Virus record (IMG/VR): IMGVR_UViG_3300027843_000001
DNA length: 64,000 bases
Origin: a virus
Direction: 5' to 3' (one strand)
This document shows, piece after piece, positions 32,637 to 52,476 of the stretch. The notes below the pieces were generated by a model. The model was not told the origin of the DNA. It was given only the letters and a program-made list of their open reading frames with translations, and did not search any database. Every line of letters begins with the position of its first letter. Position 1 is the stretch's first letter. The translations under genes and the position numbers were made by a program.

Positions 32637-32855
32637 TTAGTAAATGTTATTTTCAGGTGTTTCAAAATCTTGTCTTTGTTCCAATCTGTCAGCAGTATCA
32701 CGCAAATGTTTAATCATATCCTCTCTATTTGCCGTTGATATGTAATTTGCTACTGCTGGGTTTCCATAAGGAAAAACTAAAATAGTACAACCGAAATCTT
32801 TAGGTAAGAATTTAAGCACACTATCTGCCATTTTTTGCATTGCTATTTTACTCAT
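32637..32855 (-). CDS. Cassette A1 gene 1, hypothetical
   Basis: 72 aa with an AT-rich leader. Confidence 0.7.
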   Translation of the reverse strand: MSKIAMQKMADSVLKFLPKDFGCTILVFPYGNPAVANYISTANREDMIKHLRDTADRLEQRQDFETPENNIY

Positions 32856-32901
32856 TTATATTTAGTTTTAAATTTATAATTAATTGAAATAAAGCACGAA
32901 A

Positions 32902-33030
32902 GCATAACACAAGCTATAACCAATAAAGGTTTTAGTGGTTTATTTAGCGTTGTAGCTCGCATCCAGTTCAGTATCGTTTGATAGCGCATCGTACCGTAAT
33001 CCTTTACTGGTCATAGCTTCAACGTTATAA
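32902..33030 (+). mobile_element. attC-like site A1 (129 bp)
   Basis: GCATAAC-ACAAG-CTATAACCAATAAAGG ... CCTTTACTGGTCATAG-CTTCAAC-GTTATAA. Confidence 0.85.
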
Positions 33031-33101
33031 GCAAGGCGGGGAAGTGCTTCTATTTAAGGTCATCGGTAATTTGATGAAAAATAAAAGCCCCCGCCAGCAA
33101 A

Positions 33102-33551
33102 TTAAGGAATGACAATACAATCAATTCCAAGTTCAACAGCAATATCATATTCCTCTTTTACGCCTTCAATCATATTACCAATAAATATTGCTACACCGTT
33201 TGTTTTCTTAATGTTTTCTAACATTAGCCTTCTATCCCAAACCAAAGCATCGCCGTCTAATGTTGTGCCGTACCAGCAAACAATGTGTTCAGATACCTTT
33301 TCCAAAAAATCCCAAACAGTTAATGGAATATTTTTTTCAATCAAAGTCTTTTTTGGTAAAAAGCAATGATGCAAAACTGAACGAGGTTCATCGTATTCCA
33401 TTTGAACATCATCCATTTTGTAACTTCTTTCTGAAAAATCAAATTGCCCTTGGTATTTATCACTTTCAAGCCATTCGTTAAATTTTTTATCTACACTTTC
33501 AACCGTTTGGTTTTTAATTGTGAAATGCAGCGAAATATCATACTTTTTCAT
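33102..33551 (-). CDS. Cassette A2 gene, hypothetical
   Basis: Probable start MKKYDISL; cassette ends GTTATAAGC / GCTTATAAC are complementary. Confidence 0.7.
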   Translation of the reverse strand: MKKYDISLHFTIKNQTVESVDKKFNEWLESDKYQGQFDFSERSYKMDDVQMEYDEPRSVLHHCFLPKKTLIEKNIPLTVWDFLEKVSEHIVCWYGTTLDGDALVWDRRLMLENIKKTNGVAIFIGNMIEGVKEEYDIAVELGIDCIVIP

Positions 33552-33633
33552 ATCGTTATGGGTTTTACAACGCCCGCCCAAGGCTTTTATTTTTAGTGTT
33601 TCAATTCAAGTTTAGTAAGTAAAATCGCCCAGC

Positions 33634-33763
33634 TTATAACACGTGGTATAAAACAAAGCGGTTTTAGTGGTTCTCTAAGCGTTGTACCCCGTACCATTTT
33701 TCCCTGCATCGGGAAAATGGTTTCTCCGCTCTCCGCTTCGATTTCATACCACAGCCGTTAGCT
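33634..33763 (+). mobile_element. attC-like site A2 (130 bp)
   Basis: TTATAAC-ACGTG-GTATAAAACAAAGCGG ... CCGCTTCGATTTCATAC-CACAGCC-GTTAGCT. Confidence 0.85.
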
Positions 33764-33770
33764 GCCATTC

Positions 33771-33841
33771 CTCAACAAATAAAGGTATTAATACCCGAAT
33801 AAAAAATATGTTATGCAGCACATAAAATTGGTATATTTGCA
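33771..33841 (+). promoter_or_regulatory. Promoter block (ATGTT-N4-AGCA motif plus TATATTTG)
   Basis: Related to the blocks at 48851-48917 and 52491-52557; precedes the ORF at 33864. Confidence 0.65.
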
Positions 33842-33863
33842 TAAACATTAATCCATTAGAACT

Positions 33864-34724
33864 ATGGCAAATTTAGTTAAATTAACCGTTTTAGACGGTG
33901 GTCGTTTGACCAGAAGGACGGGCAGCATGTACTTTAACACTTCCCGTATTATTAGTTTCAAAACTGTAACAGCCGGGACTTTGCTGTTCTACAATGACAA
34001 TCGTAACGGGTGGCGGGAAAAGCCCGCTAAGATTTTAGTTAGTGACTCGTATGCCACCATAGCCGCTGCCGCTGCCATCTATGCCCCCGGCAACCGAATC
34101 TCGGTCAGCATCTTACAGAAAGGTAGCGACGTTTATGCTTCGGCTGTAACCGGTAGTCTTTGCGTGGATGACATCGTACTGGCCTATGCCAACCCCGGAA
34201 ACACTTCTACCCAGACTTATTTGCTCTTGCAGCATGGTATTTGGACTGCTGTAGAATACGTTATAAGTTCTTCCATTGCTGCTTTCTACAATGCTTCTAA
34301 AAAGATTACCGATGGCGTTAATACTTTAGTGGTTACTATTGGTAGCATTGGATCGACTACGGACGACTACAAATTCACTTCCGCCGCAAATACCACTGAG
34401 CAGGTTATTACCCTTACAGGGGCTATCCCCGCTTTTGCTCGTATTTTGGATTGGGCGGTTATCACAACAACAGCTTTCACCGGTATAACCGGCCTCACTA
34501 CCGCAGTCGGTACAACCTCGAGTGGAACGGAATTGGTTACAGATACCTCCAACCTTGCTGCGAATACCATTCTCAGCGGAGCTATAGCTGGCGCGCCGTA
34601 CCTTGCGGGTTCTGCTACTGCGCAAAATATTTTCATCAGTTGTAACCCGACCGGTAACTGGTCAACTATGACGGGAGGGCAGTTGAAGGTAGTCATAACT
34701 TATGTTGATAGGGCTAATGCCTGA
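33864..34724 (+). CDS. Putative virion protein
   Basis: 286 aa, T/A/G-rich beta-type C-terminal domain; followed by a terminator. Confidence 0.6.
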   Translation: MANLVKLTVLDGGRLTRRTGSMYFNTSRIISFKTVTAGTLLFYNDNRNGWREKPAKILVSDSYATIAAAAAIYAPGNRISVSILQKGSDVYASAVTGSLCVDDIVLAYANPGNTSTQTYLLLQHGIWTAVEYVISSSIAAFYNASKKITDGVNTLVVTIGSIGSTTDDYKFTSAANTTEQVITLTGAIPAFARILDWAVITTTAFTGITGLTTAVGTTSSGTELVTDTSNLAANTILSGAIAGAPYLAGSATAQNIFISCNPTGNWSTMTGGQLKVVITYVDRANA

Positions 34725-34736
34725 TAACGCTTAACA

Positions 34737-34762
34737 GAAGGAGGCCGCCAACCTCCTTCTTC
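34737..34762 (+). terminator. Intrinsic terminator
   Basis: gaaggagg-ccgccaa-cctccttc. Confidence 0.65.
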
Positions 34763-34784
34763 ATTTCATAAAACACACGAACTT

Positions 34785-35468
34785 ATGGAGCTGACTAAAA
34801 AAGATATTAACGTATCCAAGCTAAAGTATGACCCTTTTGACCCGAAGACAGTCAAAGCTTTGCAGGAGTACGAGGAGTTTAAGCAGGATTTTGGGGTGGA
34901 TAAGCAAAAGTTGTTTGCGTACATAATTTTGATGTACGACATGGGTAGCGACTTACGCCATAAAATAGAATGGCTTAATCCCCGTAAAAAGCAAGCCGCG
35001 GAGCTTGCTAATTTTCCTAAAGCCGACAGGGGCAGCACATTTGAACCTAATTATGAGAATATCATCATAGGGGGCAACAAAAAAGCCAACTCGGCCATAT
35101 CCCGGTACATACGTCTATTTGCAAATCCAAAATACACGTTACTCATATATTATCAAACCATTTTAGCATCGGAGTTTGATAACCTTAATGACCGTAGCGC
35201 AAAATCTAGTGACTACAATAAGATACTCGGCAATATAAAAGCTTGCGATGCCGGCATAGAGAACTGTACTAGCGCATTATTTGGTGGTGATGAAGAAATA
35301 TCAAGCATAAAACTAGCCCTTTACGAAGACGCTGAGAGGGAAAACCTCGGCCTAAGACCAGAAGACGTAGCCTTAGACCTGAGTATCCTCGACGACATAA
35401 TAGCCAACAGTAATCCTTACGGCAAAGGTTATAAGCCAAGAGAATTAAAGTTTAAAGGGGATAAGTAG
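34785..35468 (+). CDS. Hypothetical protein, possible small terminase
   Basis: Helical 227 aa protein immediately upstream of TerL. Confidence 0.5.
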   Translation: MELTKKDINVSKLKYDPFDPKTVKALQEYEEFKQDFGVDKQKLFAYIILMYDMGSDLRHKIEWLNPRKKQAAELANFPKADRGSTFEPNYENIIIGGNKKANSAISRYIRLFANPKYTLLIYYQTILASEFDNLNDRSAKSSDYNKILGNIKACDAGIENCTSALFGGDEEISSIKLALYEDAERENLGLRPEDVALDLSILDDIIANSNPYGKGYKPRELKFKGDK

Positions 35469-35469
35469 T

Positions 35470-37785
35470 ATGAAATATAATTATCTACCCGCTGATGAGT
35501 CATTTGTGGTTAATAATGGGCATCCTAAAGGGATTGACCGGGATTCCTATCTAAAGCCAATCCGCGTATTACTCCCTGAACCGCCTCCTTTAGAACTTAT
35601 TGAAGGATACGGCCTCCCCCCGAAAGAACAGAGATGGAGACCCCCAAAAATGCCGGATAAATTAACCTTGCTGCAAAAAAAGATAATAAGGGATTTCAGC
35701 GATGACGATAAGCAGAAAAGCTATTACGTTGTTGTTGACAGGATATGGGAAGAAATAGAAAATAACCAGGAAGACTATAAGGACGAAATAGAATGGATAA
35801 AGTACCAATGGTATTATAGAACGCAAGGGTATTGGTTCTTTAACAACGGTAAGCCTACATATATAACCGGATGGCATTGGTTCTTTTTATCCTATTGGCA
35901 CTTGGAGGGGGTTAAATTACCGGAATACAGGGATAGGACTAGGCGTACTTTTCTGTTCTGGGATTACATATCTAAAACAAGGGAGTCTTTCAAGTATCTG
36001 GATGCTGATGGCAACGCCATATCCAATGACGACGGGACTTACGATATGATAGAAATGCCAGTACGTACCTTTTATGGCGTTGGTCAGGGCAAAGGCCGGC
36101 GGGAGGGCGTGTCCAATATGTCGCAAGCTGCCCAATTTGAGACCTGCTCACGGGAACAGGGAGCCATAGGCGCCATCTTTTCAATGAACGCTACGAGTGC
36201 ATACAAGTTGTTTTACGAAAAAACCGTACAAGCTTTTTCTAAGATACCTTTCTTTTTCCTGCCTAAGTGGGATGGCTACTTTAAGCAATCTACTTCTATC
36301 GACTTCGAAAATCCAAAAAATGTTACTTCTGGTTTGGAACTAAAAAGCGCAATATCTTATGCGCAGTCAGCTTTTGGCGATGCTTATGATGGCGGTAAAC
36401 TCCGGTTCGCCATATTTGATGAAAGTGGAAAGACTAAGGACTGCGATATAACAAAAAGATGGGATACACATAAGAGGGGGTTAGCCCTTGGTGAAGGTGC
36501 CAGCATATTTGGCTTTTGTATTCACCCATCTACTACCGAAGATATGGAACTTAAAGGTGGGGCTAATTATCAGAAATTTCTTATTGACTCGGATTTTTAT
36601 AACCGAAACCCTGTAAACGGGCAGACAAAAACGGGATGCGCTAATATCTTTCTACCTTTCTATGATGGTATGGAGAGTTTTATTGACCCTTTCGGTAACT
36701 CCATAATAGATGAACCAACGGATGAGCAAATAAAAACTGGTTTTAAGTTCCGGACAGGCTCCTACCAATTTCTTAAATCGGGCCGGGACAGACTCCTAAA
36801 CAGCAAAGACCCCAGAGATATGGTCAAATACAGGGAAATGGTAGTCAAGCAGCCCTTCAACTTTATGGAGATGTTCTCGCTGTCTTCCGGCAACCCTATT
36901 TTCAACCTTGACATAGTTAATAAGCGTTGCTCAGAGTTGGCCACAATGCCAGACCCTTATATACGTGGTAATTTTGAGTTCACGGGCGAAGAATTTAATA
37001 GTGACGTTAGGTTCATACCTTGCTCTGATGGCCGTTGTGAGGTATCACTCGTGCTATCCCCTGAGCAAGCCAATTTGCGGCATAAAGAGTTCATATTAGA
37101 CAGGTTCACTGGTGAACAACGCGAAGTATGGGCACCAAATTTACAGCATATTGGTGTCGTAGGCGTTGACCCTTATAAGTCAAGCGGGGGTGATAAAAAG
37201 ATGGCGGCCAAGACTGGTTACTATGCGTCAGATGGAGGCATAGCAGCTTTTAAGATAGGCGACAAATACGAACTTAGTGAGGAAGCATTATCATTCGAAT
37301 ACCCCAGGTTCGTTGTCGTTTACCGCAACAGGCCACTGAGTAAAATATTTTATAAAGATGCGATAGCTATTGCGCAATATTACGGGTTTATGATATATCC
37401 GGAAACCAACGTTGATCAGTTTCTTGATTTTGTATCTGACCATAACTACGACGGGTATTTCCTGTACGACTGGGACGAGAATAAGATGGACTTCAAGCAG
37501 AAGCCGGGGGTGTTTCAATTAACAGCCAGCAAAGAGATAGGCTGGGACGAAATACGTAATTATATAGAGTTCCGGGGTCATAAGGAACGGCATTCGTCTC
37601 TACTTAAAGAGTTTTCTCAACTTAGTACTTTCGAGGATTTAGGGCGCAATGACATGGCCGCTGCCGCATTGTGCGCGTTACTTGGAGCGCGAGGTTTGTC
37701 CCGACGATACAAAAGGGCTGAGATGGTAGAAGAAACAAACGGCTATGACGATTGGGCTTCTATGGATGATGACTTTATGCTGTAA
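35470..37785 (+). CDS. terL: Terminase large subunit (crAss-like type)
   Basis: GKGRREGVS ATPase motif, Walker B FAIFDESGK, nuclease motifs VGVDPY and IYPETN. Confidence 0.9.
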   Translation: MKYNYLPADESFVVNNGHPKGIDRDSYLKPIRVLLPEPPPLELIEGYGLPPKEQRWRPPKMPDKLTLLQKKIIRDFSDDDKQKSYYVVVDRIWEEIENNQEDYKDEIEWIKYQWYYRTQGYWFFNNGKPTYITGWHWFFLSYWHLEGVKLPEYRDRTRRTFLFWDYISKTRESFKYLDADGNAISNDDGTYDMIEMPVRTFYGVGQGKGRREGVSNMSQAAQFETCSREQGAIGAIFSMNATSAYKLFYEKTVQAFSKIPFFFLPKWDGYFKQSTSIDFENPKNVTSGLELKSAISYAQSAFGDAYDGGKLRFAIFDESGKTKDCDITKRWDTHKRGLALGEGASIFGFCIHPSTTEDMELKGGANYQKFLIDSDFYNRNPVNGQTKTGCANIFLPFYDGMESFIDPFGNSIIDEPTDEQIKTGFKFRTGSYQFLKSGRDRLLNSKDPRDMVKYREMVVKQPFNFMEMFSLSSGNPIFNLDIVNKRCSELATMPDPYIRGNFEFTGEEFNSDVRFIPCSDGRCEVSLVLSPEQANLRHKEFILDRFTGEQREVWAPNLQHIGVVGVDPYKSSGGDKKMAAKTGYYASDGGIAAFKIGDKYELSEEALSFEYPRFVVVYRNRPLSKIFYKDAIAIAQYYGFMIYPETNVDQFLDFVSDHNYDGYFLYDWDENKMDFKQKPGVFQLTASKEIGWDEIRNYIEFRGHKERHSSLLKEFSQLSTFEDLGRNDMAAAALCALLGARGLSRRYKRAEMVEETNGYDDWASMDDDFML

Positions 37786-37789
37786 AAAA

Positions 37790-37821
37790 ATCCCAAGTGA
37801 GCATCACTGCTGACTTGGGAT
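37790..37821. terminator. Bidirectional terminator hairpin
   Basis: atcccaagt ... acttgggat between convergent genes. Confidence 0.7.
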
Positions 37822-37894
37822 AACCAATAGTGTTGAAATGAAATGTAATTCTGAGAACAAAGTAAACTAATTTATGGTGAATAAAAAATATGTT

Positions 37895-38839
37895 TTACGG
37901 CATAGATTTTCGAGCCTTCATTAGACCTTCCACTCTTTTACGATAATCTTCGGGCTGCTTAGATAAGTCCACTTGCTCTACGTATTTAGATTTTATAGAA
38001 GCAGGCAACTTGTTAAACCCTTTCCATTTTTCGTATTCCGCTTCGTCTATGTCCTTAGTTGAACCGTCGTGATACTTTATTCTAAACCTCCTACCGGGTT
38101 TGTTCATACGGGTTTCCCCCTTATCATTAACAGAATAATAACTGTTGTCGTATGAGGGTTCTACACTCTCCACTTGTCGATAATAGCTTTCTGGACTTTT
38201 TTCCGATTCGGTACTCGTAAATTTTTGGGGCTTGTAATCGATAGCGGTGCCAGATATTATAATTGGATTACCCTGCGCGTCAATTTTATATTTTTCATAT
38301 TTACCCGTGGATTTGTTCTTTATGTAGGGGCCTTCCGCAAATTTTATCACGTCACTTTTATCATAATTGCCTTTCCCAAAAACGCCCGGCTGAGTACTAC
38401 TGTACTTACTCTCTAACTGCTTATATGTCGGATCATCAGACGCTATTTTGCGAAGCGATGGGGTCTCGGGGTCTAAGTAATAGCCTAATTTTTTGCCGAA
38501 GGTCTGGTTATACCGATCAATATATGATCGAGACAGGTTGGTAACTTTGGGCGCTTCATCCTCAGACGAGGGTCGAAACAGCACATGAGCATATCTATTT
38601 ATACTTTCGGGATCTCTGTATAAATTAGGATTAGATGCACCACCCGCTTCATTTATTTCCTTCGCCGCCTCATAGGACATAGATCCCTCTGGACGTGTAA
38701 TTAAAGATGCCTTATAAGCTGCGTCCCCCTTTAGCTTTGGGATCGGGTTCCGGTTAAAATAATCAGCAAATTGCGGATTCTTGTTTACAAAAGCCGCTAC
38801 CTCAGAATCGGAATACTCGTTTTTTTTATCTTCTGGCAT
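37895..38839 (-). CDS. Hypothetical protein
   Basis: 314 aa ORF following the portal gene. Confidence 0.7.
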   Translation of the reverse strand: MPEDKKNEYSDSEVAAFVNKNPQFADYFNRNPIPKLKGDAAYKASLITRPEGSMSYEAAKEINEAGGASNPNLYRDPESINRYAHVLFRPSSEDEAPKVTNLSRSYIDRYNQTFGKKLGYYLDPETPSLRKIASDDPTYKQLESKYSSTQPGVFGKGNYDKSDVIKFAEGPYIKNKSTGKYEKYKIDAQGNPIIISGTAIDYKPQKFTSTESEKSPESYYRQVESVEPSYDNSYYSVNDKGETRMNKPGRRFRIKYHDGSTKDIDEAEYEKWKGFNKLPASIKSKYVEQVDLSKQPEDYRKRVEGLMKARKSMP

Positions 38840-38843
38840 GACG

Positions 38844-41141
38844 TTATCTTTGTGGTTTTTGTTCTGCTTCTTTCTCTCTCATGTAGGCTTCGTGCTCTTG
38901 GGCGCGGCCTAATTGCTCCATCTTTCCTTCTTGTTTCTTGTCTTCTATCAACAATTGCCCCTGCGTTTTTAATTGCAATTTACCGGCCTCCCCCTGCGTT
39001 TTGGCCTCCGCATTCTGCTGATTAATCTGACCCTGATATTGCATATTCTGTTGCTGCAAAGCGTCCTGTCTTGCCTGCTCTTTATTTATTGCATTTGTAA
39101 GGTACCGACGTATCTGTCTTAAATTACCACCGTTAAGCAATTTCTCTATAAGGTAGAATTTAATATCAAAACGCAATAATGGCGACCCGTTTTTACCCGG
39201 GGCTGCTGCTCTCTCAATTTCCTGCAACAACATTTGTCTATCCTGCGTAGTGGGTCGTGGTATCATCTTAATACCTATTTCCCTTGCTTCGTATTCGCTG
39301 TCAACTAAGGCTTCGATGTCATTCTTGCCTATGATACGGGCATAGGAACTGTACACTTTCTTATCGTTTCTTACGCCCAGACGAATCGCCTCGGCCAGAA
39401 ATTCCGAAGATTTTTCCTTTAAGAATAAAATATTTGCCACTATTGGCTTCAATATTTTAGAAGTGGCCTGCATAGCTATCTCATTGGAGCCTACTTGAGA
39501 CGAATTTGAGGGCTGCTGGCCTAATGCTATTGGGTTGAAACCCGTTAACATTTCCACCATGCTTATACATTGATTAAAGGATTGCATGCACTCGTTGATG
39601 GCATTTAGCGTGGTGCTTGGTATCTTTTCGATAGGCTTAACATTTCCGCCCTCATACCTTCCCCTGAACCCTAATGACCTGTAAGGGAATACCCCTGTTC
39701 GCTTCATAAGGTCTATCAATCCCAGAAAATCCATTTTTTTACCCTTTATGTCAATCTTATCTATCATTGATAAATCGACAAGGAATATTTCGTCATGCAA
39801 TTGCTGTAACCTCTTCTGAAATTTAAGCCATGTGTTTTGAAACAAGTCATATACCGGCACTAGGCGGGGCGTTAAAGCCTGCTCATTGCCCACGTATATA
39901 TGATATGGCGAGATGGGCTTTTTCGAAGATGCATTAACCGGTTGGCTTGGCGACAATTTAACATCGTAAACCATATTTGTACCTATTAGCCAATTGGCTT
40001 GGTACATTCTCTTTACTGTGGTAACAACTGTTTTATTATTGTCAGTATTTTTATTCTTAGCCCATTTATCCTGCGAGAAAATGGTGCGCTTCCCGTATCT
40101 GTCCTTGTTCTCGATATACTTTTCATTATCATTTTCAATCCAATGAAAACTTAACACCCCTACTTTGTAAAAGTCATATAGCCAATTACCGTATCGGTCT
40201 AAATTGAGGTATTTATCCCATTCGTTAAGGGGCGGGTTTCCAGTTCCGGGGTACTGACTCCAAAGTTTACCGACCTGCTGTATTTCTTCCTGCGTATAAC
40301 CAGCGGCCTCAAGGCGTTGTCTAATATCCGATATTGGTATAAACTGAATATGCCCCCAATAACAAGAGTCATTGCAATCCCTTTTGTCACTGTATTGGAC
40401 TATTAAACGGGTTACATCAACATATTCGACTTTATATTTATCTTCCGTGTGATCGAACACTTCCCTTATCGCACAAGCATTAAAATCCCGAATATCCTTT
40501 ATCAGCTTAACCCTTATATAGTCCCAATCCGATACTTCAAAAGTATGCTTATTCAACTTCTCTAACGCGGAAGCTACGGAGGACTTAAAATCGCCCATAT
40601 CCTTCATAAGTTCTAACTCATCAAGGTCGGTGGGGTATAGCGTCGGCGATTCTGCGGGTATCCCGGCATTCTGCTTGATCCGCTTTATCTGCTCGTAATG
40701 CTGACCTATTGCATAAGCTTCGCTCGCTTTTTGTTCCTGCTCATATACCGAATCCGGGTCTATAAGATCAGCTACGACCTCATAATCTATTTCGGCTAAA
40801 TTACCTAATAAGGCATCGGTTATACGCGGAGCTATTGCAGCAATATCCCAATTAATGTTCCCTTCCCCCCTGCGGTCATACTCACTTGGAGAGTTACTGT
40901 TCTTCTTACCCTTAAATATTTCCTTATATTTATTCACATCCTGCTTTCCCTCCGCATAAGCCCTTATCCGGTCAAAATCATTGACCAATGAATACGGCAC
41001 AGCGCAGCCATCACCAACGTAAGTTGACAATATCGCTTCCCCCATTTTTCGGGCGTATTTGGGAGTTAATTTATCCTTCGGGTCTATGTTTGAAGATGGA
41101 AATACGAATCTCTCAGAACTGTATCGGCTAAATGCTTCCAT
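38844..41141 (-). CDS. Portal protein (crAss-like)
   Basis: 765 aa; R.YAEGKQDVNKYK and INWDIAAIAPRI N-terminal motifs; Q-rich C-terminus. Confidence 0.85.
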   Translation of the reverse strand: MEAFSRYSSERFVFPSSNIDPKDKLTPKYARKMGEAILSTYVGDGCAVPYSLVNDFDRIRAYAEGKQDVNKYKEIFKGKKNSNSPSEYDRRGEGNINWDIAAIAPRITDALLGNLAEIDYEVVADLIDPDSVYEQEQKASEAYAIGQHYEQIKRIKQNAGIPAESPTLYPTDLDELELMKDMGDFKSSVASALEKLNKHTFEVSDWDYIRVKLIKDIRDFNACAIREVFDHTEDKYKVEYVDVTRLIVQYSDKRDCNDSCYWGHIQFIPISDIRQRLEAAGYTQEEIQQVGKLWSQYPGTGNPPLNEWDKYLNLDRYGNWLYDFYKVGVLSFHWIENDNEKYIENKDRYGKRTIFSQDKWAKNKNTDNNKTVVTTVKRMYQANWLIGTNMVYDVKLSPSQPVNASSKKPISPYHIYVGNEQALTPRLVPVYDLFQNTWLKFQKRLQQLHDEIFLVDLSMIDKIDIKGKKMDFLGLIDLMKRTGVFPYRSLGFRGRYEGGNVKPIEKIPSTTLNAINECMQSFNQCISMVEMLTGFNPIALGQQPSNSSQVGSNEIAMQATSKILKPIVANILFLKEKSSEFLAEAIRLGVRNDKKVYSSYARIIGKNDIEALVDSEYEAREIGIKMIPRPTTQDRQMLLQEIERAAAPGKNGSPLLRFDIKFYLIEKLLNGGNLRQIRRYLTNAINKEQARQDALQQQNMQYQGQINQQNAEAKTQGEAGKLQLKTQGQLLIEDKKQEGKMEQLGRAQEHEAYMREKEAEQKPQR

Positions 41142-43957: not shown

Positions 43958-43963
43958 TCAATT

Positions 43964-43996: not shown

Positions 43997-44026
43997 ATTC
44001 ACACACACGAACCAAAAAAATTATTT

Positions 44027-45046: not shown

Positions 45047-45072
45047 GTTTGTAGCTCGTGTGTTTTACTCTT

Positions 45073-45105
45073 GAACCCTGGGTCTGGCAACCCGGGGTTC
45101 TTTAT
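45073..45105. terminator. Terminator hairpin
   Basis: gaaccctggg ... cccggggttc followed by a T-rich tail. Confidence 0.7.
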
Positions 45106-45285
45106 TTTATGACAGATAGCAAAGTCCTGTCAGATAACTTCGCATGCTTACTGCAAACATTTATGATGTAGCTACAGTGCCTATCCGATACGGTCTTAGT
45201 TATAAGATTGGTGGCAGATAAACAATATAAGCAAGCGCCAGTGTCTAGTCTTTCTACTTTCAAAATAATATTTTTATGAGTGACG

Positions 45286-46086
45286 TCATAAAGGTAAAGC
45301 AATTTTTTGAAGCAACGCCGTTGATACATGCGTGTAAATCTCCGTTGTTTTACCGCTAGAATGCCCAGCCATTTTTTGAATAATCCGCAAATCCGTTCCG
45401 CTCTCTAAAAGGCTAGTAAAGCATGAATGCCTAAGTATATGGAAATGACTGTGACTATCAATATACTTTTTAAAAATTTTCTGACAACTACCTACAGAAT
45501 ATTTTGGTTCAAACTGGCCATTAAAAAGATATTCCTTAGGCTTAAACTGCCGATAATATTCACGGAGCAATAGCAGAATGTTTTCCGATAATGGCACGAT
45601 CCTATCTTTGCGGCCTTTACCATTCTTAATAGTTATCAGCATACGTTTGCTGTCAATATCTGTGAGTTTAAGATTAACCACTTCACTTACACGCAGTCCG
45701 ACCGAAAACGCAAGCGACAGAATTGCCCTATGCTTTATGTTTTCAATTTTGTTTATCTGGTTTATAATAAAGTTTTTATCAATAACTTGCGGAAGATGCC
45801 GCTCACTACGCGGACGCTCAAACGAAACCTTATCATACTTCTTATCCAGTACCTTTTCATAAAGGAACTTGATGGCATTAATGACTTGGTTTTGTTGCGA
45901 AATGGACGTGAACTTGAAAGCATCCAAATAAGTTTGAAAGTCCGCAGCAACAATATGCTGCGGGTATTTATCCACCTTTTCGAGAAATTTAATAATATAG
46001 TGCGAGTACATGTCTCGCGTCCTCGGCGAGTAGTTTAAGTATTTAAACTTTTGTTCGCAAATCCTTAAAATTTCGTGGTGTTTCAT
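45286..46086 (-). CDS. Tyrosine recombinase, integron-integrase-like
   Basis: Catalytic R (GLRVSE), K (GKGRKDR), HxxR (HILRHS), H (AGHSS) and Y (IYTHV); N-terminal SAM-like domain (NYSPRT...YSHYI, QNQVINAIKFLYE). Confidence 0.95.
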   Translation of the reverse strand: MKHHEILRICEQKFKYLNYSPRTRDMYSHYIIKFLEKVDKYPQHIVAADFQTYLDAFKFTSISQQNQVINAIKFLYEKVLDKKYDKVSFERPRSERHLPQVIDKNFIINQINKIENIKHRAILSLAFSVGLRVSEVVNLKLTDIDSKRMLITIKNGKGRKDRIVPLSENILLLLREYYRQFKPKEYLFNGQFEPKYSVGSCQKIFKKYIDSHSHFHILRHSCFTSLLESGTDLRIIQKMAGHSSGKTTEIYTHVSTALLQKIALPL

Positions 46087-46122
46087 GTTGATAATCAGAT
46101 GGGTTCAGATATATAATAGTTA
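46042..46122 (+). mobile_element. Platform B: attI-like site overlapping the integrase 5' end
   Basis: ...cagatatataataGTTAGCAAC; the first cassette junction is 33 nt from the integrase ATG. Confidence 0.85.
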
Positions 46123-46410
46123 GCAACAATTGTCTAAGACGGTTTTCCAGTCGATAGATTTTCCGCAATATGGGCAGAAATTAAATCTATGAATGTATCC
46201 CTTTCTACCATCGACAATTTGTTTTGCTGTTAATGGCTCGCCTTTTAATAATCCATATTTTTTTAGCTCTGGCTGCAATTTTACAACATCTTCAACCTGT
46301 CTTTTTATGTCGGAAAGTTTTATATCTTCTCCGCTCAAAAATCCGATGAAACAATCACAACTGTTGCTAACACTATGTATAAGCGATTTGAGTTTTACTG
46401 CGCTTGTCAT
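46120..46410 (-). CDS. Cassette B1 gene, small protein with CPYCG zinc-finger-like motif
   Basis: ATG lies inside the attC B1 loop; the TAA is the complement of the junction TTA. Confidence 0.65.
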   Translation of the reverse strand: MTSAVKLKSLIHSVSNSCDCFIGFLSGEDIKLSDIKRQVEDVVKLQPELKKYGLLKGEPLTAKQIVDGRKGYIHRFNFCPYCGKSIDWKTVLDNCC

Positions 46411-46492
46411 ATCCTGTGATTTTTATAAAATTATTACTGTGATATAGTTTGCGGCTTCTAATCCCAAACCGCTCATACATTTTTCGTTAGCC
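46365..46492 (+). mobile_element. attC-like site B1 (128 bp)
   Basis: TGCTAAC-ACTAT-GTATAAGCGATTTG ... CAAACCGCTCATAC-ATTTTTC-GTTAGCC. Confidence 0.85.
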
Positions 46493-46497
46493 ACAAT

Positions 46498-47121
46498 TTA
46501 GTCAATACCCAAAAAGAAGGCTCCGAGTTCACCCGAAGATATCTCTTCCTCTTTTTTAGGTTCTGATTGATTTTCTTGTGGTTGTTTAGGTTCTTCCTTT
46601 GGTGTGTTTTGAATAGCTTCAAATAGTTTCTTCATTTCACCAAGGCACATTGTAAAACCTTTTTTGTAATACCTAAACGCACGGCTCATTGAGCTTGCAG
46701 GATAAGTAATTTTATTTATCATTAATTGCCTTTTTGCAAGGTCAATAAACGTGGTTTCTCCGAGGTATATTTTTTCATGGTCAACAGCAAACATTGAAAC
46801 AGTAAAATCAAACGCCTCAATCGTTGTTTGCGGGTCTGCAAAAAACTTCTTTACAAGGTCGTAAGTACATTCTTTATATTTCATCTTGCAGCCGTTATTG
46901 CTTTCCCATTTTATTTCGCAGTCTTTTGCTTTAAAATATGTACGTGCCTTTTCGTACTCTATTTCATTTGGGAAAAACATATCGTAATCAGTTTTTACAG
47001 GCACACCCATAAAGTAATCACGTAAAGCACCGCCAGCAAGCCAACATTTTATATCAGCTTCTTTCATTTCGTTTAAAATAATCTTGCCATATCTTTGAAC
47101 GGCATTTTCAAATTGAATCAT
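46498..47121 (-). CDS. Cassette B2 gene: nucleotidyltransferase (CCA-adding / poly(A) polymerase head-like)
   Basis: LAGGALRD...DYDMFF and FDFTVSMFA motifs; probable start MIQFEN. Confidence 0.75.
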   Translation of the reverse strand: MIQFENAVQRYGKIILNEMKEADIKCWLAGGALRDYFMGVPVKTDYDMFFPNEIEYEKARTYFKAKDCEIKWESNNGCKMKYKECTYDLVKKFFADPQTTIEAFDFTVSMFAVDHEKIYLGETTFIDLAKRQLMINKITYPASSMSRAFRYYKKGFTMCLGEMKKLFEAIQNTPKEEPKQPQENQSEPKKEEEISSGELGAFFLGID

Positions 47122-47157
47122 ATCGTTTGTTATTAATAGTTTAAAAATAAAAACTGT

Positions 47158-47289
47158 GGCTAACACGGGCTCATACGCAACTGGGGTTTAAGTAGTTACG
47201 TCAAATGTACATCTTTTTTTTTACTTTGGTGTATGTTGAAAATTTAGTAGCTCCGATTCCCCAGCTGCGCATAGCCCCATCCGTTAGTG
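47158..47289 (+). mobile_element. attC-like site B2 (132 bp)
   Basis: GGCTAAC-ACGGG-CTCATACGCAACTGGGG ... CCCCAGCTGCGCATAG-CCCCATCC-GTTAGTG; unpaired C in the left arm. Confidence 0.88.
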
Positions 47290-47338
47290 GCAAGCGGAAG
47301 AACTGCTCCGATTGAACGTCCGTGCATTGGTAATTAAG

Positions 47339-47665
47339 TTACTTGTTTAAAACATTTGAAAGGAATCCGTGAAGAATTGGGTCGTTGTCAAATATTTCCA
47401 AGTCTTTGCCCGTAAACGAACTTCTTATTGTTGCTTCAATCGCAATCTTATTGTCATTATCAGCATTATTCCATTCATGGTGGTATTTAGCTAATTGCTG
47501 GCGTTTACCATCGTAGTAGCTTTGTGTTTGCTCAAATACCTCACGCCTTGCGTTTTCTTTACGTACACCCCAAAAGCGTGTACCAAATATTTCAAACTCG
47601 TTAGCTGCAAAAATCAAAGCAAATAAGCCAATAATTGAAGCAATTGTTATTAGTGCTATTTTCAC
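47339..47665 (-). CDS. Cassette B3 gene 2, membrane-anchored hypothetical
   Basis: N-terminal TM helix; 108 aa. Confidence 0.7.
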   Translation of the reverse strand: MKIALITIASIIGLFALIFAANEFEIFGTRFWGVRKENARREVFEQTQSYYDGKRQQLAKYHHEWNNADNDNKIAIEATIRSSFTGKDLEIFDNDPILHGFLSNVLNK

Positions 47666-47667
47666 GG

Positions 47668-48180
47668 CTATTGTAATTTAAAAGGTGAAACCAATACTTT
47701 AGGCTCAATATATACGGGTCTGGGCTGGTTATCATTTGGGTCAATCATCATTAACCAAGTTCCCTCAGCACTCGAAGGCATAAACAACCCGTTTGGGTCT
47801 GCTTGCGGCCTAACTGCACATCCTCGTTCTGAAATGCCAGGAGTTTCTAAAGTCATTGGGTTTGTGTATTGGGTTGCATAAGGTATACCATATCCGATAC
47901 ATTTACCTAAAAATACGGGCTCTCCAGTCATTTCAGGTACTATGTAAGCATAACAAATTAAGTTTTCTTGGTCACGTAGTTCTAAAATCATTTTCATAAG
48001 CTTGCGTTCCTGAAAGTTCTTAATTGCTGGCATTCCTACCTGTGCATTAGCCTCTTTCATTAAAACTTCTTGTTTTGCGGCTAATACATCATTAGTTGTT
48101 GGTTGTTGGTCACAACTCGAATTACTCATAAGTAGCATCATTATAGCTACTAAACTAAAAATTGAAATAGCTTTTTTCAT
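47668..48180 (-). CDS. Cassette B3 gene 1, lipoprotein-like hypothetical
   Basis: Signal peptide ending NSSC; CIGYGIPYATQYTNP and QADPNGLF motifs. Confidence 0.75.
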   Translation of the reverse strand: MKKAISIFSLVAIMMLLMSNSSCDQQPTTNDVLAAKQEVLMKEANAQVGMPAIKNFQERKLMKMILELRDQENLICYAYIVPEMTGEPVFLGKCIGYGIPYATQYTNPMTLETPGISERGCAVRPQADPNGLFMPSSAEGTWLMMIDPNDNQPRPVYIEPKVLVSPFKLQ

Positions 48181-48233
48181 TTTGTTTGTTTTAAATTATT
48201 AATATATAGTAAATTATAAATAAAATGCACTGG

Positions 48234-48324
48234 TACTAACACCGTATATAAAACATAGCCAGATAGTTTACTGCTTAATTGCAAGGCTTGTGCATGGCTA
48301 CGTTTCATATAAGAACCGTTGTGC
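48234..48324 (+). mobile_element. attC-like site B3 (91 bp)
   Basis: TACTAAC-ACCGT-ATATAAAACATAGCC ... GGCTACGTTTCATAT-AAGAACC-GTTGTGC. Confidence 0.85.
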
Positions 48325-48328
48325 GCAA

Positions 48329-48541
48329 TTAACCCAACTCCCAATATTCGATAGCTCTTTCTTTTCCTGTTGTATTCAAAAATTCAGTTTCTCCAAAATG
48401 AGAAATAACTTCTTCGATAGAGAAATGCTCGAGAATTTCCGATATACTTGCGCTATCAGCTTCTATTCTTACTTCACTTTTTCCATTTGGCTCAATTGTA
48501 CAATTTGAAGCTGAAAAACTTAAATCTACTTCTTCATTCAT
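48329..48541 (-). CDS. Cassette B4 gene, acidic hypothetical
   Basis: 70 aa; cassette ends GTTGTGCG / CGCACAAC are complementary. Confidence 0.7.
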   Translation of the reverse strand: MNEEVDLSFSASNCTIEPNGKSEVRIEADSASISEILEHFSIEEVISHFGETEFLNTTGKERAIEYWELG

Positions 48542-48587
48542 AATATTATATTTAATTTATTAACAATGATTTACAAACAATAACTAC

Positions 48588-48690
48588 GCACAACAAGCGG
48601 TCATAAAACAAAGCGGGTTAAGTGCAATTTACAAGTTCATTAACTCGCTCGTAGTTCGGTATCGGCGGATAGTTTCACAGCCCGTTCACC
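48588..48690 (+). mobile_element. Truncated attC-like site B4 (left arm only)
   Basis: GCACAAC-AAGCG-GTCATAAAACAAAGCGGG; complementarity stops after CCCG at about 48684. Confidence 0.65.
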
Positions 48691-48823
48691 GTACTCGGCC
48701 ATTACTCGGAACGAATATGTTATATTTCGTGGTACTCTTGTCCTTGCACCCTACGCTAGAAACTAACGCCAACCTAAAGCGCAGACAAATTGCTGCTGTA
48801 CTGATTAAATTTTTACGTTTCAT
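48686..48823 (-). CDS. 45-aa ORF, possible truncated lipoprotein
   Basis: Manual translation MKRKNLISTAAICLRFRLALVSSVGCKDKSTTKYNIFVPSNGRVR. Confidence 0.3.
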   Translation of the reverse strand: MKRKNLISTAAICLRFRLALVSSVGCKDKSTTKYNIFVPSNGRVR

Positions 48824-48850
48824 AAGTTTGTCGGTTTGTATTAAATCCAC

Positions 48851-48917
48851 CAACAAATTAACTTATTAATCCTCATATAAAAAATATGTTAGAAAGCATA
48901 AAAATTATACCTTTGCA
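48851..48917 (+). promoter_or_regulatory. 67-bp promoter block, repeated at 52491-52557
   Basis: caacaaattaact...atataaaaaatatgttagaaagcataaaaattaTACCTTTGca. Confidence 0.75.
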
Positions 48918-48938
48918 ATACACAATATTATAGGCGCT

Positions 48939-49688
48939 ATGACTTTAGACCAGATACTCCACTTAGTTAATTACGTCTGCGTGAAGGAACGCTCGGGGGG
49001 AACTCTATCGCCGGATCAGCTTAATTTTATACTGCCGGCGGCTAATATGAACATGTTCAACCGCAATGTCGAGGCTGCTCAGTTATACACCGTCCAGAAA
49101 AATATTCCTTTTATAGAAGGTATTTATGTCTTTAAATCATTAAATGATTTTCGCAGAAAGGTCGATATAACTTTTACTGCCGGCGCTTACGATTTGAGTA
49201 ATACTTCCGATTATGGCCATTACGCAAGTTTATTCACTAGCTACAATGGCGCTTATAGGCGCATAGACATCTTAACAGATTCCGGATTAGCTGAAAGGCG
49301 TAGCAATATGTTAGCCCCCCGGTTATCGGAGCATCCGGCAGCCGTTATAAATGGTACGGATATTCTCATATATCCCACAGATATTACCGCTGCCGAATTT
49401 ACTTACCTGAAACTACCCAGCATTCCGGTGTACGATTATTACCTGACCTCCTATGGTGAACAAATCGCTTTAGCGGCTGGTCAGACATACACTTTGCAAA
49501 CGGGTGAAATTGGCTCCGCCGGGCAGACTTCCGGTAGTGTGTCATCGACTACGGTAGAATTGGAATGGAGTCCACTATACCATATCGAATTTGCGAATGA
49601 ACTTCTAAAGATGGTGGGCGTAAATCTTAAAGACGAACAAGTGCGTCAATATGCTTCTGCCGCACAGCAAGATAATAGGCCAATATGA
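48939..49688 (+). CDS. Tail ring / head-tail connector protein (crAss-like)
   Basis: Paralogous to 52560-53240 (MTLDQIL vs MNLDSIL; ELEWSPLYH vs QFEWPEAYH). Confidence 0.65.
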   Translation: MTLDQILHLVNYVCVKERSGGTLSPDQLNFILPAANMNMFNRNVEAAQLYTVQKNIPFIEGIYVFKSLNDFRRKVDITFTAGAYDLSNTSDYGHYASLFTSYNGAYRRIDILTDSGLAERRSNMLAPRLSEHPAAVINGTDILIYPTDITAAEFTYLKLPSIPVYDYYLTSYGEQIALAAGQTYTLQTGEIGSAGQTSGSVSSTTVELEWSPLYHIEFANELLKMVGVNLKDEQVRQYASAAQQDNRPI

Positions 49689-50296
49689 CAAAAAACCAAA
49701 TCATAGAGCTGTATAGGCTACAAGTATTGGGGCAGTCATTAACCGATGACCAATCATTCAAAGCGGATGAGAGGGTTATTGAGCTAATGATAACGGCTGC
49801 TTTGAACGAAGTCTATTTTAAGATATTCAAGAAAGACCCTTCAAACTTTGACAGGTACTGTAAACTTTATAAGAATGTAGAGATAAAATACGATTCCGAC
49901 ATCGACCAATACTATTCCGACCTCCCCGCAAAAGTTATTCAGTATCCGATATTAGGCGATGGCGTTTGGAGCATAGGAACCATGCAAGGCTCTACCGTAG
50001 AGTTCGTACCCATATCGCAGGATGACGCAGAGGGCATGACCGGATCAGAATCCTTTCTCATTGACGACGTGGTAAAATATGCCGTTGTTGGCAACCAAGT
50101 CTATTACTTCGGTATAGACCCCGTGAATCCCATAACAGCAGTTAAGATGTTCCTTGTCGTCGAATTTACTGAATGGGGCGCTACGGAAAATGTGCCTATG
50201 CCCTCCGGGCAGGACTTCGATATTATGCAATTAGTTTTGCAGGGATACCGTGCTAAGGATAAGGACAAAGCGAATAATCAAAATAGTATAGCCTAA
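49685..50296 (+). CDS. Tail ring / connector protein
   Basis: 203 aa, translationally coupled within the structural operon. Confidence 0.55.
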   Translation: MTKNQIIELYRLQVLGQSLTDDQSFKADERVIELMITAALNEVYFKIFKKDPSNFDRYCKLYKNVEIKYDSDIDQYYSDLPAKVIQYPILGDGVWSIGTMQGSTVEFVPISQDDAEGMTGSESFLIDDVVKYAVVGNQVYYFGIDPVNPITAVKMFLVVEFTEWGATENVPMPSGQDFDIMQLVLQGYRAKDKDKANNQNSIA

Positions 50297-51006
50297 TGGA
50301 TACCCCCGGAGTACAGACAGTAAAACGCATAGTAACAGACATTGTTTTCTTTTGCCAACTTGGTAAGGATAAGTGGAATTTTGTGTATAAGTTGGTGATT
50401 GATGCCATAAGGGAAATACACATGTTCCACACCGATGAATACAAGGTGGTGAAGGTAAATGTCGATTCCGCACTTAATACGATAGACTGGCCGGATGACT
50501 ATCTGGGTTTTGTGTTCTTAGGGATTCCCCTTAATGGCACTATCTGGACGCTGACAAAGGATAACGACTTAATAACGACTACTACCCTTGTCAATGGGCA
50601 GGAAACCTTAGATAGCGAAGCGGGGGAGGGCGTAACAATTAGTAAACGAACCCGACCCGGATACGCAGTTAAGGGTGGGGTCAATAAATTTTACTACAAA
50701 GAAGACCCCGCCAACAGGCGCATATTCATAAACGGAATTAACCCAGCCAATGTCTTATTAGGGTACGTCAGCTCCGGCGTTACTGACGCAGGAACGTTAG
50801 TACCGATGAAGTACAAAAGCCTTATCGAGAACTATGTCCGGAGCAAATTATTTCTTCTTGGTGACAAACCAGATACCAACAGCTCCGAATATTTTCTTCG
50901 CCTGTATTATGATGAAGTGTCAAAACTCAAAATATTTGAAAGCCCAACCTTAGACGAGATTTATGATGGGCTATCGGAGATATTTACCGGAGTTATGACT
51001 AAATGA
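50296..51006 (+). CDS. Tail ring / tubular protein
   Basis: 236 aa; RRIFIN...VLLGYVSSG...VPMKYKSLIENYV pattern. Confidence 0.6.
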   Translation: MDTPGVQTVKRIVTDIVFFCQLGKDKWNFVYKLVIDAIREIHMFHTDEYKVVKVNVDSALNTIDWPDDYLGFVFLGIPLNGTIWTLTKDNDLITTTTLVNGQETLDSEAGEGVTISKRTRPGYAVKGGVNKFYYKEDPANRRIFINGINPANVLLGYVSSGVTDAGTLVPMKYKSLIENYVRSKLFLLGDKPDTNSSEYFLRLYYDEVSKLKIFESPTLDEIYDGLSEIFTGVMTK

Positions 51007-51017
51007 CGTAGAAAGTA

Positions 51018-51098
51018 TTTAAGTTTTTGTTCGCAAATCTTTAAAATTTCGTAGCGTTTCGTGCTGATACTTAGATTGGTTTAGATATGTAATAGTTA
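51018..51098 (+). mobile_element. Platform C: attI-like site plus integrase stub (start codon ATG changed to ACG)
   Basis: 81-bp copy, 6 mismatches to platform A. Confidence 0.85.
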
Positions 51099-51121
51099 TA
51101 TGCAAGGCTAAGACCGTGCAT

Positions 51122-51952
51122 TTAATCAACATTTGTGGGTTCATCCGTAAAAGAAAAAAGCCCACGCTCTTTTGCTTTTTCAAAGCAATTAGGGTTTATG
51201 TCGCAACCTATAAAGTTTCGTTTCAAATCTTTGCATACTTCGGCAGTTGTAAAACTTCCAGAATAAAAGTCTGCAACTAAATCTCCTTCATTGCTACTTG
51301 CTTTAATAATTCGCTCAATTAATGCTTTTGGTTTTTGGGTATCATATCCAAGTCTTTCAGAGTTAGTCGGCCCCAAATTATTCAATTCCCAAACATCATC
51401 AATAGGTGTTGAATCTTGTATTTTATAAACAACATCACCATTTTCGTCCCTTTTCATTACCTTTTTACCATCTTTCACATCTACTTTATTTTTCTTTCTT
51501 GGTGTCTCTAATGGCAATCTTAATTCATTAAATATTATTTTGTCAGTTTTGCCATAAAATATAAGTATATCGTGGTTTTTAGCAAACGCCTTTTGCTTTA
51601 TACTCCATTTATTGTAACTCCAAATAACCTCATTCACAAAATTATCGTATCCAAATATGTCATCCATTATACACCTAATCCAATGGTTTATTTTGGTATC
51701 CATTTGTAAATAAATACTTCCTGTTGGTTTCAATATTCGGTGCATTTCTTTTATTCGTGGTATATAGTGGCTTTCAATTTCACTTCTTATGGGTTTCAAA
51801 TCTTGGTAGTCTTTAAACTTCCTGCCAGTTCCATAAAGTATATCACAATAAATTAAGTCTATCGTGTTATCTTTAATTTCTGCCATCAATTCTAAATTGT
51901 CGCAAATTCTAAGGTCTAAAAAACCATCCCCATTTTTTTCTTTTACTATCAT
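51122..51952 (-). CDS. Cassette C1 gene: DNA methyltransferase (N6-A/N4-C, beta-type order)
   Basis: IYCDILYGTG, LKPTGSIY, NEVIW, YDTQKPKALIERII and ADFYSGSFTT motifs. Confidence 0.9.
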   Translation of the reverse strand: MIVKEKNGDGFLDLRICDNLELMAEIKDNTIDLIYCDILYGTGRKFKDYQDLKPIRSEIESHYIPRIKEMHRILKPTGSIYLQMDTKINHWIRCIMDDIFGYDNFVNEVIWSYNKWSIKQKAFAKNHDILIFYGKTDKIIFNELRLPLETPRKKNKVDVKDGKKVMKRDENGDVVYKIQDSTPIDDVWELNNLGPTNSERLGYDTQKPKALIERIIKASSNEGDLVADFYSGSFTTAEVCKDLKRNFIGCDINPNCFEKAKERGLFSFTDEPTNVD

Positions 51953-51993
51953 TTATTCATTTAATTAAGTTTCTACTAATTTTACCGCCCAGC

Positions 51994-52093
51994 ATATAAC
52001 ACGTTGTATATGTCAGTTTTGCCAATTGGCTTTCGTGCTTTGAATAGGAATGTGTGCGTGGCAAAACCGAACACATACAACCATCCGTTAGCG
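51994..52093 (+). mobile_element. attC-like site C1 (100 bp)
   Basis: ATATAAC-ACGTT-GTATATGTCAGTTTTGCC ... GGCAAAACCGAACACATAC-AACCATCC-GTTAGCG. Confidence 0.85.
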
Positions 52094-52402
52094 GGCATTG
52101 TAATGAACACAGCCGAACCAACTTTTAGTTGAATATTCAAATCCTAATCCATCATGAACACATATAGGATATGATTGCATTCCAGTTTTTTCAGTATCAG
52201 GGTATTCTTCTTTTGGATATGTTTTCCCCGTTATTTCAGTTCCATTTTCAATCCATTTTCCAGAAAGTATTAAGCATTCGCCCATATCTTTTGAATATTC
52301 GGATTCTTCTTTTTTATTCCAATTTTTACATGATAAACAACGACCCGCTAACACACGGTTAGCGCAATTGCCGTTTTTGTGGTTATTCGTAGTTTCTACC
52401 AT
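52088..52402 (-). CDS. Cassette C2 gene, Cys-containing hypothetical
   Basis: ATG inside the attC C2 loop; CLSCKNW and FGCVHY motifs; stop codon in the junction. Confidence 0.7.
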   Translation of the reverse strand: MVETTNNHKNGNCANRVLAGRCLSCKNWNKKEESEYSKDMGECLILSGKWIENGTEITGKTYPKEEYPDTEKTGMQSYPICVHDGLGFEYSTKSWFGCVHYNAR

Positions 52403-52476
52403 TTTATTAAGTTTTTAGTAAATTGATAATTAAGTTCTTTTTAGTCGGCAACTTCGCTAACCGTCAGCCGTTATCG
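52346..52476 (+). mobile_element. attC-like site C2 (131 bp)
   Basis: CGCTAAC-ACACG-GTTAGCGCAATTGCCG ... CGGCAACTTCGCTAAC-CGTCAGCC-GTTATCG. Confidence 0.85.

Follow-up and report, generated by a model that had tools for sequence, protein, structure and literature searches.

A phage-borne integron-like system of inverted cassettes whose attC hairpins probably carry the translation start of their own genes

In the usual model of the integron, promoterless genes are each followed by a recombination site, their expression is driven from the platform, and the hairpin formed by the site is an obstacle to translation. Polar effects of attC hairpins acting as such obstacles in arrays were reportedly described by Jacquier et al. 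in 2009. The subject of the present analysis is a stretch of 64,000 nucleotides (nt), called the window below, from the 71,116-bp virus record IMGVR_UViG_3300027843_000001, which is rated complete; the window was recovered nearly entire in a wetland metagenome run. It carries arrays of small genes associated with attC-like hairpins, and in this phage and many related uncultured elements the same kind of site precedes its own gene and appears to encode its start codon and N-terminus. Comparison of the sequences makes it probable that this is a phage-borne integron-like system with inverted cassettes, in which attC supplies the translation initiation region of its own cargo. One DNA segment would then be constrained twice over, by its folding as a recombination substrate and by its role in initiating translation.

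Much of the system resembles integron cassettes and their attC sites, sedentary chromosomal integrons, and the phage-borne integrons and clusters of attC sites lacking integron-integrases (CALINs) described recently (PMC9892861). In both, imperfect AAC...GTT hairpins have one arm with a bulged base and fold better as the bottom strand; the crossover is at G|TT of the R' box, which makes the hairpins of an array hybrids; an attI-like site borders the recombinase gene at its 5' end; small genes unrelated to one another form arrays; and the core site contributes stop codons. The differences are a 266-amino-acid (aa) Xer-like recombinase that scores below the integron-integrase cutoffs, five attI-like platforms in one phage genome, genes on the bottom strand, attC located 5' rather than 3' of its own gene, and a loop with an ATG and an open frame. 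The paper on phage integrons mentions neither crAss-like or Bacteroidota phages nor inverted polarity, IntegronFinder 2.0 gives only isolated cases of integrons in Bacteroidetes, and the one crAss paper that mentions integrons merely applied the finder. In the open-access PMC and bioRxiv papers that were searched no description was found of integron-type cassettes that are systematically antisense to attC or start inside it.

The nearest known mechanism is that of ORF-11, ORF-17 and ORF-18 of the attI1 site of class 1 integrons (PMC8876359). There, as in the system described here, a translation start in the recombination site aids expression of the captured gene, the core site provides a stop, and in-frame fusions with the cargo occur. 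However, the attI1 open reading frames (ORFs) lie in the attI of the platform, have a Shine-Dalgarno (SD) site, span the crossover point and chiefly couple the translation of the first cassette. The starts considered here lie instead in the loop of the cassette's own attC (between L' and L''), downstream of the crossover, and travel with the gene; they lack an SD site, are mostly fused to the cargo, and coupling is not supported across the family. In canonical arrays, too, attC forms its hairpin in the mRNA and interacts with translating ribosomes (PMC11511950), but there the hairpin is the 3' element of the previous cassette and a hindrance. Here the gene has the hairpin as a 5' element of its own, with a loop that appears adapted for ribosome landing.

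Anatomy of the attC hairpins and polarity of the cassettes

Twelve hairpins of one family, all on the same strand, lie between positions 32900 and 58025 of the window and were recognised by a covariance model (R2) with E-values from 8e-24 to 9e-4; a scan of the window with this model gave no hits beyond the 12 sites. The structure of R2 was drawn by hand; an RNAalifold model (R1) built on a MAFFT alignment of the hairpins contained no consensus pairs. Each site has ..TAAC on the left and GTTA.. on the right, together with a paired L box and a middle part that is long and variable, that is, the imperfect inverted repeat R''(..AAC) L'' ... L' R'(GTT..), folding as a single strand, by which attC is recognised in integrons. 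An extra C in the left arm of the plus strand, corresponding to a bulged G on the minus strand, is present in attC B2, D1, D3 and E1, and conserved A.C mismatches on the plus strand correspond to G.T pairs on the minus strand. At 10 of the 12 sites of the window it is the minus strand that folds better; in the family as a whole the strand in integrase orientation does so at 118 of 139 sites, and its 3' arm contains the bulged G. The minus strand is therefore the canonical bottom strand, and the strand asymmetry of attC, with an extrahelical base on the '' arm and a stabler bottom strand, is present.

The hairpins of the window and related sites fall into two length classes, of about 135 nt and about 97 nt. 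In the short class, which includes 48232-48326, 51992-52095 and many related sites, a start codon is almost never found inside the hairpin, and the cargo often begins 17-19 nt past the R'' GTT.

The array's integrase, encoded at 45286-46086 on the minus strand, is an Xer-like tyrosine recombinase of 266 aa (Pfam Phage_integrase, 2e-35; SAM_4, 7e-13) whose best NCBIfam match is XerA_Arch (5e-50). It reaches 139 bits with the integron-integrase model TIGR02249, in two stretches and against a cutoff of 265, and 103 with PRK15417 (cutoff 435), and does not belong to the IntI-type integron integrases with their additional domain. The start of its gene is overlapped by an attI-like element of about 81 nt (repeat D1, 46042-46122, plus strand) ending in ...AATAG|TTA, so that an insertion site adjoins the 5' end of the integrase gene, as is the case for attI. 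Four more copies of this element end at 32328, 51098, 53799 and 57410, and the similarity among the five ends exactly at GTTA; no match to the D1 core pattern was found in viral contigs beyond this genome. The geometry of the window is that of an integrase, attI and a cassette array. A decamer, TTATCGCTCC, occurs directly after the last hairpin of array C (52471-52480) and 11 nt after that of array E (58029-58038), and may represent what was ancestrally the right half of the attI-like platform.

Relatives of the recombinase, 47 in number and 53-70% identical to it, are encoded in viral contigs, and the arrays adjoin the recombinase gene in more than 30 contigs. This adjacency, like the hybrid boxes described below, is indirect evidence that the sites may recombine with the neighbouring recombinase. 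The hairpin model found 146 sites in the contigs of these relatives; like those of the window, every one of them runs antiparallel to the recombinase gene and lies on the upstream side of its start. The family statistics given below were computed on 139 and later 158 hairpins after the removal of duplicate contigs. An all-against-all comparison of the cargo DNA revealed merely two cross-contig pairs of homologous cassettes, despite the homology of the hairpins.

The extent of the cassette was derived by testing the 6 nt past the R'' GTT for complementarity to the 6 nt that precede AAC, either in the same hairpin or at the 3' end of the cargo ORF. Over 122 cassettes the match was 4.84 of 6 at the cargo end and 2.68 of 6 with R' of the same hairpin, the former being better in 98 cassettes and the latter in 9 (Wilcoxon p=6e-16). 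All six positions matched in cassettes B2, C2, D2, D3 and A2 of the window, and likewise in B1 when compared with the attI junction. The crossover is therefore placed at AA|C of R' (G|TT on the other strand), and the gene consequently travels with the L', loop, L'' and R'' that precede it. As in integrons, the crossover falls in R', and the outer R' box at the far end of the cassette matches its own R''. Read in gene direction, the cassette would thus comprise the C of the R' box, L', the loop, L'', R'', the ORF and the RYYYAA of its own R' box.

The longest ORF is located on the recombinase (bottom) strand in 112 of 118 cassettes, and not, as in canonical cassettes, on the top strand with attC at its 3' end. 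Since the mRNA sense is the better-folding strand, a stable hairpin of its own stands before every gene. In about one family cassette in six the stop codon coincides with the junction, and the other stops mostly lie within 13 nt of it. Such a coincidence had been proposed in a preliminary description of this DNA for genes B1, C2 and D2, and their stops (46120-46122, 52088-52090 and 54137-54139) are indeed the TTA of G|TTA junctions. Gene callers and integron finders will mis-annotate arrays of this kind, as they expect genes on the other strand and may trim or extend the N-termini.

Probable start codons in the hairpin loop

Gene B1 (46120-46410, minus strand) encodes a small Cys-rich protein of 96 aa and begins inside attC B1 (46363-46494, plus or top strand; 100 bits with R2, supported by the fold), while gene C2 (52088-52402, minus strand; 104 aa) begins inside attC C2 (52344-52478, plus strand; 110 bits). 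The preliminary description had placed both ATGs (46410 and 52402) in the loop and had quoted the N-terminal peptides; the codons do lie there, 47 nt and 58 nt inside the hairpins, and the peptides are exact. Residues 1-16 of B1 are encoded by the loop and the L''/R'' arm, and residues 1-19 of C2 by its attC; the stop of C2 belongs to the junction of attC C1. The conserved cores of both proteins start 2-5 codons past the hairpin. Searches of Pfam and PHROGs with B1 and C2 gave no match.

Among 29 homologues of B1, a core C-x-C-F-I-G-F (CDCFIGF in B1) is nearly invariant and begins two codons past the R'' box, and the loop ATG at 46410 is the only ATG, GTG or TTG in the B1 frame upstream of it. 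Homologues encoded in tight operons without attC have a short N-terminus, M-K-x-C-D-C-F, and those with leaders of 13-22 residues have attC over the start, with the ATG at -62 to -65. This indicates that the leader is dispensable for the protein family. In the predicted structure of B1, residues 1-15 have a predicted local distance difference test (pLDDT) value below 50. The hairpin before B1 and that before its homologue in the related contig L057 are 65.7% alike, which is close to the baseline for hairpins of different contigs (63.6 +/- 4.2%), whereas the cargo DNA is about 88% identical; the ATG and the frame are retained although the leader diverges between lineages. An exchange of this hairpin at R'' was considered as the source of the low similarity and dropped, because neutral divergence, judged by the synonymous changes of the cargo, explains it equally well, and the canonical crossover is preferred since the box comparison supports it.

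The six homologues of C2 all have an in-frame leader, and at the three homologous loci that were fetched attC lies over the start with the ATG at -58; no indel occurs between the ATG and R'' at the C2 loci, despite strongly diverged leaders. The structure model of C2, with a mean pLDDT of 39, was unusable. These comparisons support the view that no canonical start outside the hairpin would include the conserved core of B1 or C2; within the hairpin, C2 has a second candidate besides the loop ATG, a GTG in the stem. At its two termini C2 draws on complementary halves of the recombination box: GTGTTAGCGGG (R'') specifies V-L-A-G, and GCCCGCTAA, the cassette's own R' at its far end, specifies A-R-stop. 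The frame of C2 thus occupies the whole cassette between the loop and the crossover point.

The same association is found across the family. On the gene strand, 63% of hairpins contain a loop ATG with a frame open past the arm; for the opposite strand the figure is 15%. Frames that cross R'' and run at least 40 codons beyond it are found in 50 of 96 cases with a loop ATG and 26 of 321 without (odds ratio 12.3, p=1.7e-19), while the control on the other strand is flat (3/35 versus 31/370). Depending on the rule by which the gene is picked, between 25% (34/137) and 48% (54/112) of cassettes start in the loop, and such starts are nearly confined to long hairpins (54/95, versus 1/25 in the short class).

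A natural comparison is offered by the chromosomes of Flavobacteriia (Polaribacter, Tenacibaculum, Nonlabens, Wocania and others; contigs L068-L128), which contain the same attC family in mirrored geometry. Their sites are located downstream of, and co-oriented with, the gene of a recombinase 33-45% identical to that of the phage, and their genes lie mostly on the top strand (39 versus 16), that is, in normal polarity. In both geometries the direction of the genes is that of the recombinase gene, and the hairpin alone is flipped. Among long hairpins a loop ATG open past the arm is found in 6 of 53 sites of Flavobacteriia and in 90 of 120 of the phage type (11% versus 75%; p=2e-15), and the loop contains 36% A on the gene-equivalent strand in the former and 47% in the latter. 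The scarcity of loop ATGs in cellular hairpins of normal polarity therefore ties the loop start to the inverted polarity.

Several observations weigh against the loop ATG as the codon in use, and some of them favour the view that loop starts are an artefact of ORF calling, in which the true starts lie at or just past the edge of R'' and the frame open to the loop ATG is a by-product of an A-rich, stop-poor hairpin. More than half of the cassettes start downstream of the hairpin, so that a loop start is an option and not a rule, and 26 of the 76 frames crossing R'' do so without a loop ATG. In the common attC subtype, many frame-0 leaders have a TTG in frame within the arm, and often an ATG right after the R'' GTT, which may be the real starts, and an in-frame GTG at codon 17 of C2, inside the tightly paired stem, is a possible alternative start. 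The N-termini of the homologues are automatic gene calls, which favour long frames, and the 139 hairpins are mutually homologous, so that the counts are not fully independent. Finally, the entropies of the first, second and third leader codon positions (1.44, 1.40 and 1.32) reveal no periodicity and hence no positive coding signal, although this fits an unconstrained peptide as well. Such an artefact nevertheless appears unlikely: no alternative canonical start precedes the core of B1, the link between a loop ATG and a long frame is strong and has no counterpart on the other strand, cellular hairpins of the same family lack loop ATGs, and the alternative codons lie in a tightly paired arm with an unpaired probability of 0.04-0.17. 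We infer that the loop ATG is the codon really used, and that its placement in the loop represents an escape from the hairpin. The lack of codon periodicity would then mean that the ATG and the open frame, and not the peptide, have been selected.

Accessibility of the loop, leader peptides and short reading frames

Translation initiation regions of Bacteroidota that are A-rich and independent of an SD sequence, located in ordinary 5' untranslated regions, were reportedly described by Baez et al. in Nucleic Acids Research in 2019. The regions considered here are similarly A-rich, G-poor and unstructured upstream of the ATG, the 20 nt that precede the loop ATGs containing 56% A and 6% G and no sequence that qualifies as an SD site, but they differ in being placed inside the loop of a recombination hairpin. 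In the predicted fold of the gene-sense RNA, tight stems are formed at about -110 to -100 and -20 to -5, counted from the G of the R'' GTT, and the 70 nt between them are mostly unpaired; the loop ATGs have a mean predicted unpaired probability of 0.68. Starts are scarce from -24 to +16 (9 in 41 nt), and they pile up in the loop and at +17 to +40, where 30 were counted with a peak at +17 to +20. A start-poor zone of this kind would be expected if some 15 unstructured nt have to precede the start for the ribosome.

The following mechanism is suggested. In long hairpins of about 135 nt, such as those of B1 and C2, the ATG would be presented in a large, A-rich and mostly unpaired loop. The ribosome would load there without an SD interaction, as is usual in Bacteroidota, and melt the 3' arm while elongating, so that this arm becomes a hydrophilic and disordered N-terminal leader of some 15-20 residues. 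The remaining cassettes would use a start at least 17 nt past the stem, and transcription presumably enters from outside the cassette. In either arrangement attC would carry the translation initiation region of its own cargo and move along with it. A more far-reaching proposal is that the long loop has evolved into a portable, SD-independent ribosome landing pad, the cassette being a unit of recombination site, translation start and gene; we regard this as conceivable, though less probable than not. If it were true, any captured frame in phase behind R'' would be translated in a Bacteroidota host, and folding of the hairpin in the mRNA would set the strength of expression. The expression of inverted cassettes is directly testable, and they offer a ready-made plan for mobile gene units in Bacteroidota that bring about their own translation.

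The leader has a mean length of 20 aa and is hydrophilic (grand average of hydropathy, GRAVY, -0.68). It could serve cassette proteins in common as a functional peptide, such as a signal for targeting, packaging or processing, and one attC subtype does provide a recurrent E-E-Q-N-L-N-E-A-x-K-P-Q-L-N-I-G-A-V on at least seven unrelated cargos in different contigs. However, the third codon positions of the leaders are no freer than the others, the leader of the B1 family has diverged to the background similarity of attC while its cargo has remained alike, leaderless homologues exist, and the peptide is predicted to be disordered, which makes such a function very improbable. A role that depends on the peptide sequence was rejected on the absence of codon periodicity. 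N-terminal extensions of about 20 residues in cassette proteins are best treated as site-derived and outside the fold.

Some hairpins contain short ORFs that are separate from the cargo. In attC A1 (32900-33032, plus strand; identified with R2) the preliminary description had noted a loop-initiated ORF of 36 aa (32852-32962, minus strand), and this ORF exists, with its TGA overlapping the ATG of the ORF at 32637-32855 as ATGA; it is also readable from an upstream ATG at 32989, which would extend it to 45 aa. The ORF of 34 aa reported in attC A2 (33632-33765, plus strand; R2) likewise exists (33593-33697, minus strand), but its proposed relatedness to the A1 ORF as a device comes down to the nucleotide homology of the two attC sites. 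The shared PLKPL is not independent evidence, because it is the translation of a conserved attC stretch, GGTTTTAGTGG (repeat D7, 73% nucleotide identity). In attC B3 (48232-48326, plus strand, short class; R2) an ORF of 43 aa (48177-48308, minus strand) begins in the paired 5' arm of the stem and overlaps the cargo (47668-48180) as ATGA, and in attC C1 (51992-52095, plus strand, short class; R2) one of 39 aa (51957-52076, minus strand), whose ATG likewise lies in the paired 5' arm, ends 4 nt short of a methyltransferase start at 51952.

These overlaps in A1 and B3, and the short gap in C1, are what would be seen if loop ORFs were upstream ORFs that open the hairpin and act by termination and reinitiation, as ORF-11 and ORF-17 do in attI1, with the in-frame fusions being incidental. 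Across the family, however, the stops of out-of-frame loop ORFs are not enriched near the cargo start: 10 of 29 lie within -25 to +4 of the cargo ATG, compared with 69 of 191 frames without a loop ATG (p=1), and 5 of 29 versus 23 of 191 lie within -8 to +4 (p=0.39). In addition, the ATGs of B3 and C1 lie in the paired arm and outside the loop. Upstream ORFs as the general explanation are thus improbable, and translational coupling by short loop ORFs was rejected as a family-wide feature, the stops being no nearer to the cargo starts.

The presence of a promoter in attC was also considered. A box, TACATTTG, described earlier as facing its gene in attC B2 (47156-47291, plus strand; R2), is present at 47202-47209 on the minus strand, but its occurrence is at chance level and a promoter role does not follow; the window contains 104 occurrences of TAnnTTTG, with 77.5 expected. 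A sense promoter carried by attC was rejected, since the motif is depleted on the gene strand of the 158 hairpins (5, against 17 expected). On the top (antisense) strand of the hairpins, at positions 60-69 from the R'' end, it is mildly enriched, with 28 occurrences against 17 expected, 10 of the 28 being at one position; the enrichment could reflect an antisense promoter or merely the conserved TTTGATAG motif.

The earlier proposal that recombination site and gene are interlocked therefore appears to hold in part: comparative evidence speaks for a gene with its own attC in front and for starts in the loop, whereas coupling by short ORFs, a promoter in the box and a sequence-specific role of the leader are not supported.

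The phage, the remaining hairpins and other motifs

The window is read as a crAss-like phage of a Bacteroidota host, because an ORF of 1166 aa has a weak match, under the Pfam cutoff, to the C-terminal domain of the crAss-virus muzzle protein, and because the cellular relatives of the recombinase are nearly all from Bacteroidota. A recoded genetic code was rejected, as translation with table 11 leaves long frames uninterrupted all along the window. A megablast search with 18 kb of the window against a collection of deposited phages gave no match, and a look-up of sequencing runs that contain this DNA returned none of RNA.

When contigs of four DNA runs were compared with the region 45200-58200, no gain or loss of cassettes was observed in this phage, and the joints were mostly assembly breaks at the D1/D2 repeats. 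In run X3, from an aquatic sample, a contig of low depth joins position 47160 of the window to 57897; it contains a B2 cargo of about 97% identity, the joint falls exactly at the TAAC of R'', and the hairpin is nearer to that of E1 than to that of B2. This may reflect divergence of the hairpin, exchange at R'' or an assembly chimera.

Five further hairpins, all on the plus strand and identified with R2, complete the set. A degenerate one, attC B4, is located at 48599-48709 (30 bits, E 1e-4). At attC D1 (54010-54144) an ORF of 73 aa (53807-54028, minus strand) begins at an ATG in the L'' box. The cargo of attC D2 (54882-55016), a DNA methyltransferase gene at 54137-54850, has its start 32 nt beyond the hairpin and its stop in the junction TTA. 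The last two are attC D3 (55585-55719) and attC E1 (57892-58025).

Outside the cassette arrays, at least seven small genes on the minus strand between 56300 and 61300 have a common start context, AATAAAGCC-ATG (CATGGCTTTAT on the plus strand), which represents a repeated initiation or promoter-proximal motif.

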